The notes under the pieces were generated by a model that saw only the letters and a list, made by a program, of their open reading frames with translations, had not been told where the DNA came from and did no database searches. A DNA stretch of 62,068 nucleotides, counting the filler, from Basidiobolus ranarum (lineage: Eukaryota), in NCBI GenBank assembly GCA_040143965.1. It is 15 parts of 15 records of this genome, joined end to end, with 100 filler letters (N's around TTAATTAATTAA, not from the genome) between each part and the next. Parts side by side here need not be neighbours in the genome. Positions count along the whole stretch, not along the records: positions 37,360 to 41,398 come from JASJQH010002144.1; 14 more parts are not named here. One strand, given 5' to 3'. Below, one piece after another: positions 4,066 through 58,038 of this stretch. The first letter of the stretch is position 1; each line of letters starts with the position of its first letter. Made by a program: the position numbers and the translations under genes.

Positions 4066-4165
4066 NNNNNNNNNNNNNNNNNNNNNNNNNNNNNNNNNNN
4101 NNNNNNNNNTTAATTAATTAANNNNNNNNNNNNNNNNNNNNNNNNNNNNNNNNNNNNNNNNNNNN
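4066..4165. other. Artificial contig spacer (first of 14)
   Basis: 44 N + TTAATTAATTAA + 44 N; also at 8224, 12379, 16531, 20683, 24834, 28977, 33120, 37260, 41399, 45538, 49674, 53807, 57939. Confidence 0.99.
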
Positions 4166-7737: not shown

Positions 7738-8324
7738 CTGTCTATCTCTAGGTCTGTATCCAATATACGGCTTTTGTCTTGCTATAGAGTTGTCAGTTAT
7801 GGACAGGAATAAACAATCTGATGTGTAGTTCAAGGTAAATTTTACGGCTCAGTATAAAGCAGAAACTATTAAAAAATATATAGTTAGTAGAACATCCTTC
7901 TGTGTTATTGCTTTCATCAGGTAAGAAAAGAAGATTGAAAGATAGTCTTCTCTAGTATACAATATTTTACTCAAGTTTGCTAGTCATATTCATGACCACA
8001 CAAAGGAGCCAAAGTTATAAAACTATTGAAAGAGTGGTACATACATAAGAACTTCGTTTGGTTTCTTGAAACGAGAAAGGCAAAGGAAACAAGAAAAAGA
8101 TAGCAAGAACTGCAAGTATTAGCTCGAAAGTTTCCACAACAGCGGGGGAAAAGCGAGGAAAGTTATGCACCCAAAAGCAGAAGGATGAGGGGTGGGGGAA
8201 GAGGGGCAGGATCGGGGATGGACNNNNNNNNNNNNNNNNNNNNNNNNNNNNNNNNNNNNNNNNNNNNTTAATTAATTAANNNNNNNNNNNNNNNNNNNNN
8301 NNNNNNNNNNNNNNNNNNNNNNNA

Positions 8325-37359: not shown

Positions 37360-37521
37360 ATTGATGGTTTACGTTGGAATTATAAACAAGAAGGCATCAA
37401 TGGATTGTTCAGAGGTTTAGCCCCTCGAGTCTTTTGGACTTCGCTCCAGTCTGCTGGAATGTTTGTTATTTTCGAACAAGCCTTAGCACTGTTTGCCCAT
37501 CACTCCAAAGAAGTCTCTTGA
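37360..37521 (+). CDS. Mitochondrial carrier (Mme1/YMR166C-like), C-terminal fragment
   Basis: EGINGLFRGLAPRVFWTSLQSAGMFVIFE carrier repeat 3; not in ORF track. Confidence 0.75.
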   Translation: MDGLRWNYKQEGINGLFRGLAPRVFWTSLQSAGMFVIFEQALALFAHHSKEVS

Positions 37522-37981
37522 TATACATATCATAGTTACGAAGGTCACCCTTGTTTACATTTATTAGAAAATCCATCACACATCGCATTTCCATGTTCTT
37601 ATTTATAACGATTATATTTGGAGAGTTTGTCCATCCAAGGCCAACTCTTTCGATACCCATTCTAAATAATCCATCATCCATTTAATCTCCACCTCCTCAA
37701 CCGCGTTAATATTATGTGAATTTAATGTTTAGTGAGCAAATGTTACATTAAATTTACAACTGTGTTGAGTATCCATTTCATTGACCTCTTATCCAACAGT
37801 GGAGACAAAGAATCCATCCGAGAGTCTCGATAGAAATTAATGGGTTTATTGGCATTTATCGATAAATGGTATAAGATCAAGAATGACTTGAGCCCTTTGA
37901 CAATAGGCTATGTAAAAGTGAGATTAAGAGATAGAGGATACGCTTGGTAAAGTATAAATCTATGAGAGGTTCGAATAAACC

Positions 37982-38287
37982 TTAACGAAGACGTCTAGCT
38001 TCACGCTCAGACTCCATGAGTACTAGGATGTCATTTTCACGAACAGGTCCTTTGACATTACGAATGATAGAACGGGAGGTGTCATCCATGAACTCTACAC
38101 GGACCTGGGTTACTCCACCACGGGAGCCTGTACGGCCGAGGACTTTAATGACTTTGGCGTGTTTGACAGGTGCTTGTTTTTCCTAAATAAACATAGTGGG
38201 TAAACAGACAACTCAAAATGAAGACTAATCTGGGTAGTACATATTGACTGCTCTCTACGTGGAAAATTAATAAAGGTACTTTACCAT
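37982..38287 (-). CDS. RPS28: 40S ribosomal protein S28 (ATG-only first exon, 102-bp intron)
   Basis: [23 protein letters not shown]...[34 protein letters not shown] at 38287. Confidence 0.95.
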
Positions 38288-38386
38288 CACGAAGTTAGGT
38301 AGAACAATCGGTGGTCAAAGGAGAAAGCCCACAAAATCCCGCTGGAATAAAAGCTTTATTATTCTTCACTTTGATCTCGAATGAGT

Positions 38387-38404
38387 CCTAACCCTAATCC
38401 TAAC
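38387..38404. promoter_or_regulatory. Telomere-like (Tbf1/telo-box) motif in RPS28 promoter
   Basis: CCTAACCCTAATCCTAAC 100 bp upstream of RPS28 ATG; second ACCCTAAC near 38535. Confidence 0.5.
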
Positions 38405-38768
38405 TCTCCCCTATTCCTAAATCTTTCATCAATGTGGTTAGGTTGTGATTAAATTCGAGATACTTTAGCAACTAAAAGAACAAATTAATCAAAATCCTTT
38501 ATGAAAAATCCAAATATAATTCCTCCTTTGTGCCACCCTAACTTTAGCGACAAGTAAGTGATTTGATTGGAAAATACCCATCAACAAACAAGGCCAACCT
38601 TATTATTTGGTCTTGTAGATTGAATTTAATTCGATGGTCGTGAACTGTAAACAAAAAACAATAGTCTCAAACTTACAACGTTTAATCTTTTGGCGTTTAG
38701 CGTAGCTTATTTTCCAGTCCACAGAAAGCCCACTCGTATCTTTTCCTTTCTTCGCCACGGATTACACT

Positions 38769-41398
38769 ATGGCCTGTATTATTGGCAATGTCAATGTACT
38801 GGTGCAATTACATCATACTTCCACTACAAATGAACCCGCGAAAGTCGGTGAAGTCCTCACTTGTAGTGAAAACAACAAATATCTGGTCTTAACTCTCGAG
38901 AAAGGTGCATATTTATTTGGGTTCTATGTTTTGTGTACTTCCTTCTAATGCTTCTTTTAAACCATACAGAAGGTGCTTATGGCCCCCCTGAAACGTAAGT
39001 TCCACTGTTAGATCTTCCTTGTCTTTGTTACTTCTGCTTACACTTACTTTAGACGAAGACTATATTTCGATCGTTGCTACAATTCTCAAAAAGTGGATGT
39101 ATTCAACGACAGTAGATTAGAAGAGAATATTCAGTTTTCAATAAGCGGTAAGTGTACTTGAGCAGATACCTATATTAACTTTCAATTAACGCGTCATTTT
39201 CGGTGTGATTTTTAGGTGGCAATTCAGTGGTGTTTAATTTGGGAGTTGGGTTAGTTTTTTGTTTCTTCGAGCAGGTTGTTTTCATAAGTTCTTTAAACTA
39301 ACAATGGTTGGTTGGTTATTAGTATGGGTAAACACACTACTTATGATAGGTAAATTTCCATATTCTTAAAACTGCTTCTATAAGACCACCACTAATCCAA
39401 TTTGAACCGACTTTAGAATGAAAGTGCTGGCACCTTTCATGGAAACTCTGAAGAGACAGGATCTCATGGATCAAAAGAATATGACCATATCATACGCGTA
39501 AGTAAATCATTGCAATTCCCAAATGAATCCGGTTCTTTGTTTCTTATGACGTTCACTTCAATGAACTTAGATATTTGGGTGTCACAGATAGCAAGTGTGT
39601 AGATCTACAAACCGAACGTTCTGTCACTGGTAATTTGTTGAATTTAATAAGTGAGACCAACATTCCACAACTTATTAACAAGGTTATCTAATTTCTAGCG
39701 GATCTTTTGAACCATGGGGTTGACCCTTTCCTCTCCAAGATTCAATCTTTCGACGAAATTCAAGAGAGACTTGATCAAGGTAAAGTGCTCGCTTCTTTGT
39801 TATTCCACTGAAGATATTGAGTATTAACAATCAAATAATCCAGGATGTACACTGCCTTTTGTACTTGCCATTCGATTTGAAACCTCCGGTGCTGAACCCA
39901 CTTCTGGTACATTCTATCTGGTTAGTAGGCAGCATATTGCTTGATTTTCTCTTGACAGGGAGTAACCGTTCTTGATGTGTAGGTTGATATGGGAGTGCCT
40001 CGTTACATTCCTCTAGATTCGATTATGACTAAAGAAACACCTATCAATTCGGCCATTAGCGGCGTTTCCAAATCTTTTTACTTAATGAGTAAGTGCAAGC
40101 AATATCCACCGAAGTTATTCATTGATATTGACATCAGAAACTTGTAGGAAAAATTACCACTCAATTGACCACTGGGTCTTTTGTAGGCCCTCTGCCTTAC
40201 GATGATACATATTTCACTTTACTCACCTCAGGTAAGAGTTAACCATTTATTGAATTCATTATTCGCAATATTGGTATTCATTTATTTCCATAGACTTCTT
40301 CTCTGGAAACTGTAAGAGCTTGTTCGTCTTTAATGTGGAGGTAAAGTAACAGTAATAGCTTCGAATCCAAGAATATCATTTACTCATTCATTTTCAATGA
40401 ATTCTCCCCCACTCAGACCAATGAAAAGCATCTCCATCGGGAAACTTTAGAATTGTTGGAGTTTGCAGAAATTCTAAGGAAAATGAAATTACGTGAGGTA
40501 ATGAAGTTATGTTCATGAATTGACCACTTCTTGGATTTATTAAACTGAAATCATTTTTAGAAAATCAATAAGATCGATCGAAGAGTGATTCAACATGAAA
40601 GAAGATCCAAGCAATATAAAGTGGAATTAAAGAAAATTCAGGTAGGTCCATTGATGTAGAACCGTCCCAGCTGGCAATTGAGCATTTATTCATTCTTATC
40701 ATTTAGGTTGAATATGAGGCGCAATTCGGAATTCTACGTCAACAAGAGACATTGCTTCAAGAATCTCAAGATAGAAATGATGCTCTGGAAATGCAAATTC
40801 AGAAGTTAACTCAAGATTGTGTCAATATGGAAGAGGAATACGAAGAGGTAAACGATTTGGTTGATTGATGACTGAGGTTCTACTTACTAACTCCTCCACC
40901 TATCTTAGCTGAAAGCCAATGAAAGTATGTTGAAAATGGATGCAAAATTAAGTTCAACCATGATGTCTACGGAGCTTGTGACCTTGAAAGAAGATATACG
41001 TAGAGTTAAAGTGAATTTATGTAAGTCTCGCATATAAATATCTACTCTCCCTCACATCTTTGTACCCTTGATTAACGGTTGTACTGTAGCTCTCGTCACG
41101 GATGAACGTGATAATTTGATGATGAAGTGCTCTGATTTCGAATTGAAACTCGCAGTGTTACAGGTGATTATTAGAAGCAAAACATTATTTATTAAGTGGA
41201 ATGGATATCTTACTTTACTTGGATTTCTAGGACTCTCTCGATGAAAAATCCGCAGATTATGAGGACTGTCACAGATCTCTCAAAGCGTCAGAGTTAAAGC
41301 AAGAATCCACTGAAGAAATACTTCGTACCCTTCGAAGCACCTACAATGAACTTAAAGAGACTCATAATCAGATATTGGAGAAACTTACATTAGAAACT
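38769..41398 (+). CDS. Kinesin-fold protein with degenerate catalytic motifs plus C-terminal coiled coil (>=17 introns), 3' end beyond contig
   Basis: Spliced translation: GNVNVLVQL, LYFDRCY, SGGNSVVFNLGVGMGKHT, ISYAYLGV..KCVDL, GTFYLVDMG, SKSFYLMRKITTQL, LPYDDTYFTLLTSDFFSGNCKSLFVFNV, RETLELLEFAEILRKMK; all GT-AG junctions keep frame. Confidence 0.8.
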
Positions 41399-41498
41399 NN
41401 NNNNNNNNNNNNNNNNNNNNNNNNNNNNNNNNNNNNNNNNNNTTAATTAATTAANNNNNNNNNNNNNNNNNNNNNNNNNNNNNNNNNNNNNNNNNNNN

Positions 41499-44376
41499 GA
41501 GAACTGTTCTACCTCAGTTCGTTCCATTAATGTTCGATTGGGCTCGGAGGCAGTTGGTTCAGAGTACACATGGAATATGCTACCCGCGATATATAGCTAG
41601 GTGGGAGCAAATGTTGAAGTGAAATGCGTCAATCATCTTGCATTATCAAATATGCCTATTTATGAGGGTACATACTTTGGGTTTGGCCAGTTTCTCTCTC
41701 GAAATCTTCTTGCGATGTTCCATCAAGAAATCGAATCTTTTCTTCCACTTCTCTGAATCGTCTTTGTTACCTGCCAGTCCAGATAATCCCTTCATTATGT
41801 AGATACAGAGTTTCAGTTCTAGTTTGATTCTCAAAAGTTACTTAATAGCTCTTACCCCAAATGCTAGTAGTTCTTCTAGATGACTGTCCGAAGATTCTGC
41901 TGCACATAATACCATAGCCTTGAAATCCATCATACTTCCATAACTGAGTCGACAAATAATGTCACTCTCGTTGACATAAGAGTGAATCACATTTTCATAT
42001 TTCTTGGCCAGATCCAATGAGACCGATGGCCCTGGTCCATAAGCGTAGCACTGGATCTTAAAGTTTGCAGTGCTGGCCTCTCGTATCTGATCCAAATAAT
42101 CCATCACCATCATAGTAAGAACACTAGCAGTGCTTCCTCCCAAAGAATGTCCAACGATGTACAAAGCAGATACCTTGTGCTCAGATATATGCGCCAACAA
42201 TTGAGGGATAATCTCTGCCATAAAGAATTGCGCAGAGGATTTCATTCCGGAATGGACTACTCCACCCTTCCAAGGTTGATATTCGCAAACCAAATCTGTG
42301 AGAGTATCCTGTGCGCTCTACAGAGGTTCATAGTTATGGAGAGGCCTCAATTTAGTTGAAGCAAAATTAAATGGGTAGAATGTGAGCTTACCATGGTTCC
42401 ACGAATACTCAGTACAATGGAGTTGGTGCCTCTATCTAACGCAATAAAGTAACTAGGTTGAAAGACCTGCCCTTTGAGAAACTCGAATCCAAGTAGATCG
42501 TCTTGAGGAAGTCCCAAAAATTCTCGGATACTTAAGGCATCCGACCCTTTACGAATAACACCTAACCATTATGTTGAAATCAGTAAGAGATCCAATTGTT
42601 GAGTGAAGATATCGAAATGATTAAATAATTTCGGGGCGGAATACCTGCTACGAGGTTGCTCCCTTTCCCAAAGAAATGTAACCCTCGCCATCCCTAAATT
42701 GAATTTAAAACAATTGAGTTATTCGCACGACGATGAATGGCATTCGATGTATATTTACATAAGCAGCCATTGCATATTTATAGAAATGTGTGGGATATTC
42801 TATCTCCTCCAAGTTTTGAATGTATTGACCTGTTTTAACACTATTTGCGTGGTTATATGAGGATATATTAGTCGGTACTTTCGAGCTGCGATATCAATGG
42901 AAGTTGAACATACTCAGCTACGGTGCCATAGAATTTTTCCAGGATCAACAGGCCTGCAAGGATTTCAACATTTGATGCGACCAAGCCTTGTCCCTGAACA
43001 GCAAATAAAGCACACACATGTATATAACCAGTAAGTTATCTTCAAGCTCAATAGTTTCTATGAATAGAACGTGAACTTACGAAAGCTGCAGATAACTTGC
43101 TGATCCCCCGAAGCACCTGTAATGTTTGATCTGAAATAATGTACTTGCTTAAACTAGAAAGAAACGAAGTAGTAGATTGTCCAGACTTGTCCTCATCTGG
43201 ACTATCCAAACTGAACAAGTATTCCTCTTTATCGAGTACACTTCTTTTACTGGCCTCCTCTTCAATTTTGCGAAATCCATGATATGAATTATCTTCTTCC
43301 ATAGCCGATTCAAGGCGACTTTTGAAGATGTTTTGAATACTTTTATCTAGTTCTTCACTCTCCGCTTTCATATTTGCATCGTGGGCCTCCTTCTCTATAC
43401 CTTGGAATCGATAATTTATCCGTACTTGAATTGCACCTCGGTTAACTGAATCCGTATTCCAAGCGTTGAGTGATGTTATGTTACTTGGAGAGAATCGCTT
43501 ATCCCATAACTCAAAATAACTAAACACAGAGTTCAAATTTGTACTCAATATTTGATCAGCATTACCAAAGATACTATACACTTCACTATTACCTATTGAA
43601 ACATTCAGGCATTCCCTCTAATTGCGTAAGTGGAATCTCCGCTCTTCCAATATGCTTATCGGGAAATATAACGTTGGATTCATATAAATCTAACTGTATG
43701 CAGGTTAGAGTTAGTTAGAAATAGGTTGCACTTCTTAGTGGGCAGTCTCTTACTTGACATATACCGAACAATTGCGAATGATATGAAACCACAAATTCGA
43801 AACCTTCATTCCAATACCCTTCCGATAACTCAGATACTGAGGTTTGAAATATTTGATCTGAATAAGAGAAACGAATAAAGAGTTAGTTGAGAGAAATGAA
43901 TCAAAAATAACAAGTTTAGGTAGCTAAATAAAGCAATCACCTCCTAATAGAATCCGAACGTAAGGCCGTCGGACTGGTTGATTCACTGCAACCTTTATCA
44001 CTCTGACCTATCAAAAGTAAATGAATAATTAAGTCACTGAAATTAACTGAACAGGTCGGAACTTCTCTTTCGTTTATTTTCTACCCGAAAATAAACGTCA
44101 CAAGAAGGTCGCCCAATATGGCCAACGTAGCTGCCGATTAGTAATTTTTGTCCTTACTTGCAATTTACCCTCTGGTACTTTCCAGAGGTTATTTTCTGGA
44201 ACGATGTTGGCATTAATGGAGGAAAGTTGGGTCGTTGGACAAGGATTTTTAAGGAGTTCAGAGCTAGTGGAAGAGGAACGAGTGAGTGTTCGAGATAATG
44301 AGGCTTCCTTTAATGTTGCATCCTCTTTGTTCTCTATTTGCGCGTCTTTTTCAATTTCAGAACTACTTCGAGACAT
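41499..44376 (-). CDS. C2-domain plus class-3 lipase (DAG-lipase-like), multi-exon, 3' end beyond contig
   Basis: C2: PYVRILLG..FQTSV..WNEGFEF..LDLYE..DKHIGRAEIPL; lipase: LSIRGT, VHSGM, VGHSLGG, VNESDIICRLS. Confidence 0.85.
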
Positions 44377-57765: not shown

Positions 57766-58038
57766 TTGAAAAAATTTTGTTAAACCCAGAACCTGTACTA
57801 GTTACTACAAGCTTACTTAGTGGGGTACTAATTCTTGCTTCAAGGGTATAAATTTATAAAACTAAATGTAATACAGTCAAAGATACTATCATCTGCATGA
57901 AAAATGGCATTTTGTCCCTAGAAAAAAATGACCATATANNNNNNNNNNNNNNNNNNNNNNNNNNNNNNNNNNNNNNNNNNNNTTAATTAATTAANNNNNN
58001 NNNNNNNNNNNNNNNNNNNNNNNNNNNNNNNNNNNNNN

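Follow-up and report, generated by a model that had tools for sequence, protein, structure and literature searches.

Kinesin-type heads without catalytic activity are known so far from a few narrow cases: Vik1 and Cik1, which are limited to budding yeasts, KIF26 of animals, and Cos2/KIF7. Here we describe a gene of Basidiobolus ranarum, located on the plus strand at positions 38769–41398 of a 62,068-nucleotide (nt) window (the whole stretch of DNA analysed, drawn from assembly GCA_040143965.1), whose product is predicted to carry a head of this kind in front of a coiled coil and whose relatives, in contrast to Vik1 and Cik1, occur in early-diverging fungi. One large kinesin classification dropped 166 sequences with Pfam scores below 100, including Cos2 and VAB-8, so that proteins like those described here would fall outside it, and Batrachochytrium and Rhizopus are unmentioned in its main text (PMC2867816). 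We found no account of the family in the literature, although the supplementary lists of that classification, which cover 1624 kinesin-like sequences, may hold members (PMC2867816). The family is thus apparently undescribed, while non-catalytic kinesin heads as such are already known.

Results

Gene structure

The gene sits on a piece of 4039 nt (37360–41398), where it reads from a start codon at 38769 and loses its 3' side at the contig end at 41398. The splice model was built by hand from the DNA, and a script joined and checked the exons. The resulting 18 exons and 17 introns give a joined reading of 1509 nt, or 503 amino acids (aa), with no stops. All 17 introns, each 58–76 nt long, begin with GT and end with AG; 13 of the donors are GTA, and the acceptors comprise 14 TAG and three CAG. 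The guanine-plus-cytosine fraction is 0.26–0.42 in the introns versus 0.39 in the exons. Without splicing, the longest stop-to-stop open reading frame (ORF) in any frame across 38769–41398 is 80 aa. An open spliced reading is by itself weak evidence, since a fewest-introns search that allowed GT-AG introns of 45–160 nt returned a rival stop-free path with 13 introns. That path was dropped because the 17-intron model agrees with an NCBI protein, P0002, and with the family profile.

As a control, the product was compared with a profile of 30 relatives, all from outside Basidiobolus. The spliced product scored 298.2 bits (E 3e-93) in a single contiguous stretch that pairs profile positions 1–317 with residues 1–337. 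With the same profile, the unspliced six-frame translation gave just eight small colinear pieces on the plus strand and no matches on the minus strand. The start methionine is aligned in all 32 rows of family alignment A1. A first-pass annotation of this DNA had described 18 short exons that splice in frame without stops, and this is borne out by the intron borders, the length of the reading and the match to relatives. It had also stated that no ORF is called here, which holds for uninterrupted ORFs but not for gene models, as NCBI already has P0002, a 343-aa 'hypothetical protein' of B. ranarum, placed on a contig of 4039 nt, that corresponds to exons 1–14.

P0002 is identical to the 18-exon model over aa 1–338 and then continues through five codons of intron 14 (VGPLM, stop). 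It is mis-modelled in its 3' part and leaves the true reading after exon 14. Exons 15–16 align to P0003 and exons 15–18 to P0004. These proteins came from a search with exon 10 as query, which gave four Basidiobolus proteins (P0001–P0004): P0001 is a second B. ranarum copy, P0003 is from Basidiobolus meristosporus, and P0004 is a 1034-aa B. ranarum paralogue that extends ∼600 residues past the end of the visible gene as stalk and a basic Ser/Thr/Pro-rich tail. The gene is incomplete because its reading runs into the N spacer at 41398; the truncation stems from the assembly and is not biological. A tblastn search of the window with the model matched solely its own locus and thus revealed no second copy.

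Fold of the head

The ∼317 N-terminal residues are predicted to form a complete kinesin motor fold. An AlphaFold2 model of the head, built from a 32-row family alignment, has a predicted local distance difference test score of 84.4 and a predicted template-modelling (TM) score of 0.84, and Foldseek gave 355 PDB matches to it at E≤0.001. Among the matches listed, 44 of 44 are kinesin motor domains, two of which are chains from an entry for a sperm axoneme, with E of ∼1e-18 to 1e-16, TM scores of 0.60–0.69 and identities of 13–19%. The best VIA-align match is OSM-3 (Z 27.8, 285 aligned residues, root-mean-square deviation 3.0), with KIF15, KLP1/KIF9, KCBP, kinesin-1, kinesin-5, CENP-E and kinesin-8 all within ∼1 Z unit. 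When the family alignment was compared with four true kinesins by hhalign, the probability was 98.9% (E 3.7e-17) over 327 columns. A sequence search of the PDB with the product returned weak kinesin matches, the best being a Candida kinesin-8 (E 5.8e-5), and PF00225 scored 30.2 bits, barely above its gathering cut-off of 29.3, over profile positions 253–326 of 327. An ESM Atlas search, used for leads alone, yielded kinesin clusters and an unnamed 455-aa cluster (score 0.92).

PF00225, AlphaFold2, Foldseek, VIA-align and hhalign therefore agree on the kinesin motor-fold N terminus that the first-pass annotation had proposed from the order of landmark peptides, all of which are present in the translation (NVNVLVQL, FDRCY, GNSVVF, ISYAYLGVTDSKCVDL, GTFYLVD, SKSFYLM, PYDDTYFTLLTSDFFSGNCK, ETLELLEFA, GVGMGKH, DQG-CTLPF and DMGVPR). 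In the AlphaFold2 model, short strands occupy the neck-linker position and a helix (residues 318–342) lies where the neck coil begins. No kinesin subfamily can be named because the VIA-align rows tie so closely; a subfamily assignment was tried and dropped, as the ranks from VIA-align and from the profile-against-PDB comparison tie kinesin-1, -2, -12, KCBP, KIF9 and kinesin-8.

Loss of the ATP site

Family members were aligned with three true kinesins from the same homologue search to locate the motifs of the adenosine triphosphate (ATP) site. The P-loop YGQTGSGKT corresponds to LG-VGMGKH in the Basidiobolus product, which is one residue short; other members read IG---SGK, LA-PMVPR and the like, with a loop that is 1–3 residues shorter and unconserved. 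At switch I there is a gap of ∼19 residues that includes NxxSSRSH, such that CTLPF follows directly after QG, and across the family G-(S/T)LPF stands in its place. Switch II, DLAGSE, reads DM-GVPR, with a one-residue deletion and no glutamate. Loops L5 and L8 are also shorter in the family than in the true kinesins. None of the 71 family representatives contains GxxxxGK[ST] or SS[RK]SH, and the single match to D.[AS]G.E, at residue 857 of P0038, is outside the head. The pattern counts and the alignment are thus in line with the first-pass description of a lost P-loop, switch I and switch II. None of the six frames of the contig encodes a Walker A, switch I or switch II pattern, and the only two GK[ST] tripeptides on it are chance occurrences outside the reading. 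Hence, alternative splicing is unable to restore SSRSH, DLAGSE or the ATP site as a whole.

The former pocket and its surroundings carry other conserved residues (counted over the family rows covering each column): G86 (53/53), T138 (53/66), D139 (63/66) and C142 (44/66), with P184 (64/67), R190 (48/68), D207 (65/66), P211 (52/64) and G273 (53/60) as further conserved columns. The switch II aspartate (65/66) is followed by L (51/67), G (41/67) and P (52/64), which defines a D(L/M)-G-x-P motif, and the replacement motifs of the family's own are TDxKC, SLPF and DLGxP. At the old P-loop GK position, arginine is found in 21 and lysine in 12 of 55 members. A stretch spanning alpha6 and the neck-linker-like segment, LxFxxxLRKxRxRxxxNxVDxRV, is also conserved.

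These residues raise the question of a cryptic active motor, in which nucleotide would be bound and hydrolysed at a non-canonical site made of TDxKC, SLPF, DLGxP and the basic residue at the old P-loop lysine. The new pocket residues are indeed strongly conserved rather than drifting, and the basic residue is often kept. We nevertheless consider such a motor very improbable, since the P-loop varies in both length and sequence among members and the ∼19-residue switch I loop is missing; to our knowledge, no P-loop nucleoside triphosphatase works without both elements.

Family and descent

A phmmer search of 1.84 billion cluster representatives with P0002 gave 76 matches at E≤1e-3, 38 at E≤1e-10 and nine at E≤1e-30. 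The 76 matches comprise 71 family representatives, some of them fragments, four ordinary kinesins with canonical motifs, and one ambiguous protein, P0065. Members score 54–372 bits on the family profile, mostly in one piece, as opposed to 60–75 bits for the ordinary kinesins, which match mostly in two pieces and leave the middle from P-loop to switch I unaligned. Two of the ordinary kinesins, P0071 and P0075, exceed 300 bits for PF00225. P0065 (449 aa) reaches 78.2 bits over the whole of PF00225, is without all three motif patterns and scores 24 bits on the family profile; possibly this is another dead kinesin, separate from the family.

Names were obtained for 28 of the 30 matches looked up, and every one is an early-diverging fungus. 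The members fall in Chytridiomycota (Spizellomyces, Powellomyces, Geranomyces, Rhizoclosmatium, Podochytrium, Entophlyctis, Dinochytrium, Borealophlyctis, Batrachochytrium, Polyrhizophydium, Blyttiomyces, Siphonaria and Gonapodya), Blastocladiomycota (Paraphysoderma, Sorochytrium and Allomyces) and zygomycete lineages (Basidiobolus, Dimargaris, Tieghemiomyces, Mycoemilia, Furculomyces/Smittium, Thamnocephalis, Calcarisporiella, Bifiguratus, Lichtheimia, Choanephora and Benjaminiella). The NCBI taxonomy, checked for five species, places Basidiobolus in Basidiobolomycota and Calcarisporiella in Calcarisporiellomycota. In databases the members are listed either as 'hypothetical protein' or, through automatic naming, as 'Kinesin motor domain-containing protein'. 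Two word-index searches with alignment A2, both uninformative on Dikarya, returned 13 proteins, seven of them new Mucor or Parasitella members ('near'), and P0004 alone ('longer'). The family is mostly single-copy, with several copies in Basidiobolus. The first-pass annotation had suggested an uncharacterised lineage-specific family; the first adjective agrees with the literature searches, while the second fails, as the family is not limited to Basidiobolus and its relatives but spans chytrids, blastoclads, Kickxellomycotina, Zoopagomycotina, Mucorales and others.

A tree was built from 28 named heads and three true kinesins; fragments, near-duplicates, a Gonapodya fusion and unnamed rows were left out. 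The family lies on one side of a branch against the three true kinesins with a support of 99 in the Shimodaira–Hasegawa-like approximate likelihood ratio test. The same measure supports clades of all 12 chytrid rows (97), all three blastoclad rows (94), four of Kickxellomycotina (95) and five of Mucorales (99). Deeper branches of the tree are not resolved, and Basidiobolus is placed without support. The tree is in line with vertical inheritance from an ancestor early in the fungi in which the motif losses would already have been present.

The left-out Gonapodya sp. protein (P0055, 1656 aa), named 'Chromatin assembly factor 1 subunit B, partial', has a family head at residues 569–846, after a CAF1B/HIR1 WD40 propeller, and is probably two adjoining genes merged by the predictor rather than a real fusion. 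The Mucorales members P0046, P0048, P0050, P0085–P0089 and P0091 measure 418–500 aa, compared with 700–1650 aa in other lineages, and their branch is long; much the greater part of the stalk and tail seems to have been lost in them.

The distribution bears on whether the family is simply the early-fungal orthologue of the named immotile kinesins of kinesin-11 (KIF26A/B, VAB-8 and Smy1p), and hence already known. Smy1p does have an N-terminal head and a coiled coil. According to passages of PMC3387196, it is classed as a kinesin-11, and KIF26B is likewise without IFAYGQT, DLAGSE and ATPase activity, yet binds microtubules. At E≤1e-3, however, the search of 1.84 billion representatives gave the early-fungal family and five kinesin-like proteins, there is no animal or yeast match among the 28 named, and the structure and profile ranks favour no subfamily (kinesin-2, -12, -1, KCBP and KIF9 are within Z 1). 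The head of KIF26 is, moreover, internal and without a long stalk. A kinesin-11 identity is therefore improbable.

Conservation of head and stalk

Conservation is higher in the head than in the coiled coil, at 90.5 versus 75.9% against P0003 and 78.2 versus 67.7% against the paralogue P0004. This difference, together with the retention of the head and its own new motifs across four or more fungal phyla, argues against decay and supports the view that the dead head is under constraint. The core of the first-pass proposal, a selected and catalytically dead N-terminal kinesin, is supported in the same way by the apparent constraint and the loss of motifs.

The fragmentary assembly (4-kb contigs), the wrong 3' end of the NCBI model and the several Basidiobolus copies might suggest a decaying pseudogene or a gene-prediction artefact. 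Such an explanation is close to refuted, and the least likely of those considered here, given 18 exons that read through without a stop, the 17 canonical introns between them, a 298-bit match to relatives from other phyla, a head more conserved than its stalk, and members across phyla in a tree that follows those phyla.

Stalk, tail and microtubule face

Residues 318–503 (186 residues) contain no proline, one glycine and 37% charged residues, and the family profile also matches the kinesin-1 stalk and myosin rods. The long coiled coil that the first-pass annotation had placed after the head is called on this composition, on these matches and on the model helix 318–342; a crude heptad score failed to separate head from stalk and was not used. 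Long members have 500–900 aa of stalk-type sequence followed by a basic Ser/Thr/Pro-rich tail. A run of at least four K/R after residue 330 is present in 27 of 29 long members checked, often 40–60 residues from the end; P0038 has such a run, and the sole run of P0026 is at residue 841 of 1237. By homology with P0004 and other members, the missing Basidiobolus tail is predicted to be basic and Ser/Thr/Pro-rich with a KKKRK-type run near its C terminus.

The ends of zygomycete-lineage members (P0009, P0010, P0011, P0017, P0019, P0025, P0039, P0041, P0076 and others) carry F/Y-x-[VIL]-P-[KR]-[LI] after the KKKRK-type run, and chytrid C termini carry R-x-x-A-I-L-x-G-Y-G or RKKRMEML instead. No known motif was matched by these conserved ends. 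Docking to PP1 through RVxF was considered for the C-terminal ends and is unsupported: strict matches were found in three of 40 tails versus 1.5 expected from shuffles, and loose ones in six of 40 versus 3.5.

The strong conservation of the neck region bears on a further explanation, that of a non-catalytic partner head which, like Vik1/Cik1, would form a coiled-coil heterodimer with an active N-terminal kinesin and provide an ATP-independent second foothold on the microtubule. Few parts of the family are as well conserved as LRKxRxRxxxNxVDxRV, which is expected if strain passes between heads, and the predicted fold has strands at the neck-linker position. A kinesin-fold head without a nucleotide site can serve as a partner, as Vik1/Cik1 demonstrate (sections of PMC4338441). 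On the other hand, a stalk of 500–900 aa would need a matching partner stalk and the family is mostly single-copy, the head is N-terminal here and C-terminal in Vik1/Cik1, and the basic tubulin-contact residues are unkept. We rate this explanation as unlikely overall, but the high conservation of the neck keeps it alive as a rival. Among the sequence and structure matches listed, Kar3 chains are present and Vik1/Cik1 chains are not, which does not exclude an unlisted family. On the microtubule face of the head, alpha4 is kept in the family, as is the L12/alpha5 frame (LPYxxSxLT).

Features of the locus

The coordinates of the gene and its parts are collected in Table 1.

Table 1. Exons and coding spans of the kinesin-like gene, numbered along the window.
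Feature	Position	Strand	Content	Evidence
Exon 1	38769..38904	+	aa 1–45, beta1 NVNVLVQL (aa 7–14)	Splice model, profile match
Exon 2	38970..38994	+	aa 46–53	Splice model, identical in P0002
Exon 3	39053..39147	+	aa 54–85, YFDRCY, alpha1	Splice model, profile match
Exon 4	39216..39249	+	aa 86–96, GGNSVVFN, first half of P-loop remnant	Splice model
Exon 5	39323..39349	+	aa 97–105, remainder of P-loop remnant GVGMGKH	Splice model, kinesin alignment
P-loop remnant GVGMGKH	39242–39335, across intron 4	+		Alignment with true kinesins
Exon 6	39417..39497	+	aa 106–132, short alpha2	Splice model, AlphaFold2 model, profile match
Exon 7	39571..39629	+	aa 133–152, family motif YAxxGxTDxKCxDL	Splice model, family alignment
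Exon 8	39699..39779	+	aa 153–179, alpha3, ends at switch I deletion site	Splice model, kinesin alignment
Exon 9	39844..39920	+	aa 180–205, G-CTLPF replacing NxxSSRSH, beta6, beta7	Splice model, kinesin alignment
Exon 10	39983..40088	+	aa 206–240, switch II remnant, L11, alpha4 start	Splice model, kinesin alignment
Switch II remnant VDMGVPR	39983–40003	+	Within exon 10	
Exon 11	40148..40231	+	aa 241–268, alpha4, L12, LPYDDTYFTLL	Splice model, profile match
Exon 12	40294..40340	+	aa 269–284, FFSGNCK, beta8	Splice model, profile match
Exon 13	40417..40497	+	aa 285–311, alpha6 RETLELLEFAEILRK, start of neck-linker-like segment	Splice model, Pfam, profile match
Exon 14	40561..40641	+	aa 312–338, end of neck-linker-like segment, start of neck helix	Splice model, P0002, AlphaFold2 model
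Exon 15	40707..40847	+	aa 339–385, coiled coil	Aligns to P0003 and P0004
Exon 16	40909..41020	+	aa 386–422, coiled coil	Splice model, aligns to P0003/P0004
Exon 17	41090..41163	+	aa 423–447, coiled coil	Splice model, aligns to P0004
Exon 18, 3' end open	41231..41398	+	aa 448–503, coiled coil, into N spacer	Aligns to P0004
Predicted pseudo-motor head and neck-linker-like segment, coding span	38769..40578	+	aa 1–317	Fold evidence
Predicted neck helix and coiled-coil stalk, coding span	40579..41398	+	aa 318–503	Composition, AlphaFold2 model, profile matches

On the minus strand at 37985–38182, ∼590 nt upstream of the kinesin-like gene, is a gene for ribosomal protein S28e (PF01200, 111.5 bits); the two genes are divergent and have a common intergenic region. 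A scan of the upstream region for bacterial-type promoters and terminators gave two sites versus 1.9 expected and is irrelevant for a eukaryote. On the next contig, a 159-aa open stretch at 41841–42317 on the minus strand has a class 3 lipase domain (PF01764, 58.1 bits) and is unrelated. Fourteen evenly spaced pairs of N runs (28 runs in all) split the window into 15 pieces of 4030–4065 nt in descending order of length. The spacers (4066–4165, 8224–8323 and so on to 57939–58038) are joints across which features are not readable; the one at 41399–41498 is composed of N44, TTAATTAATTAA and N44.

Discussion

The evidence shows that this locus is a real spliced gene for a protein with a predicted kinesin-fold head without ATP motifs and that it belongs to a family of early-diverging fungi; a non-catalytic structural or adaptor role of the protein is likely. 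We propose that the head does not cycle ATP and would instead bind microtubules or a partner protein as a module locked in one state, and that the protein probably dimerises by way of its coiled coil. Nuclear import is suggested by the basic run in the tail, and with it a role at the spindle or inside the nucleus of fungi whose mitosis is closed.

Several observations weigh against this proposal. Pfam sees just the last quarter of the domain in the product, and PF00225 is reached by six of the 43 family members scanned and missed in the other 37. The inability of the head to cycle ATP as kinesin does is deduced from sequence and a predicted model. The absence of Dikarya and non-fungi among the 28 named matches comes from a single-sequence search, and 40 of the 71 representatives are without a name look-up, each being nearest to a named fungal member, some at just 26–27% identity. 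The alpha5 arginine of kinesins is a tubulin contact. All four true kinesins compared have the arginine that follows PY in PYRDSKLTR, and the family column reads D in 17, E in eight and S in six of 61 rows. The net charge from switch II to L13 has a family median of 0 (n=65) versus 0, 0, 4 and 7 in four kinesins, a weak comparison with few controls. With the basic tubulin-contact residues unkept, microtubule binding by the head is doubtful.

A more far-reaching possibility takes up this last point. The family would be a pseudokinesin of ancestral fungi that dates back to the last ancestor shared by chytrids and terrestrial fungi, was lost on the Dikarya stem and gave up both the ATP site and the canonical basic tubulin-contact residues; the head would be off microtubules, with TDxKC, SLPF and DLGxP forming a new interface on a long nuclear coiled-coil scaffold. 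We regard this as tentative and, on present evidence, rather unlikely; no protein of kinesin fold is known to us that is wholly off the microtubule.

Set against the few narrow cases known so far, this is a whole family with a common loss that has been kept since before the split of chytrids and terrestrial fungi, and most of its members are invisible to Pfam. If confirmed, the family would offer a natural experiment on the use of the kinesin fold once ATP turnover is gone, and a candidate for a cytoskeletal or nuclear component by which early-diverging fungi differ from Dikarya. It would also be a tractable target through the relatives in Spizellomyces and Mucor, both of which are transformable.

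Compared with conventional N-terminal kinesins (kinesin-1, -2, -12 and KCBP), the Basidiobolus head has the same predicted fold, at VIA-align Z of 26–28, and the common order of elements: beta1, FD motif, GxN-beta3, alpha4, L12/alpha5, GGN-beta8, alpha6, neck linker and neck coil. However, identity is just 14–20%, Walker A, switch I and switch II are absent, and in the family L5 and L8 are shortened and the alpha5 arginine is lost.

Vik1 and Cik1, the partners of the kinesin-14 Kar3, also have a kinesin-like head without ATP-binding and hydrolysis elements on a coiled coil (passages of PMC4338441). Their head is C-terminal, after the coiled coil, whereas that of Basidiobolus is N-terminal (residues 1–317) and is followed by a neck-linker-like segment and the coiled coil. 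In their heterodimers, Kar3 is the catalytic kinesin.

The kinesin-11 proteins KIF26A/B likewise have a head of kinesin descent without the P-loop-region and DLAGSE motifs and without ATPase-driven motility (passages of PMC3387196). They are animal proteins, or in the case of Smy1p a single yeast protein, whereas the Basidiobolus family belongs to early-diverging fungi. KIF26B keeps microtubule binding (same source). KIF7/Costal2, the immotile kinesin-4 scaffolds, are similar in that an N-terminal kinesin head precedes a coiled coil in a protein that serves as a scaffold and not as a transporter (passages of PMC12919046). According to the same passages, KIF7 retains its P-loop and a low ATPase activity that tunes release from microtubules, whereas in Basidiobolus both the P-loop and switch I are gone.

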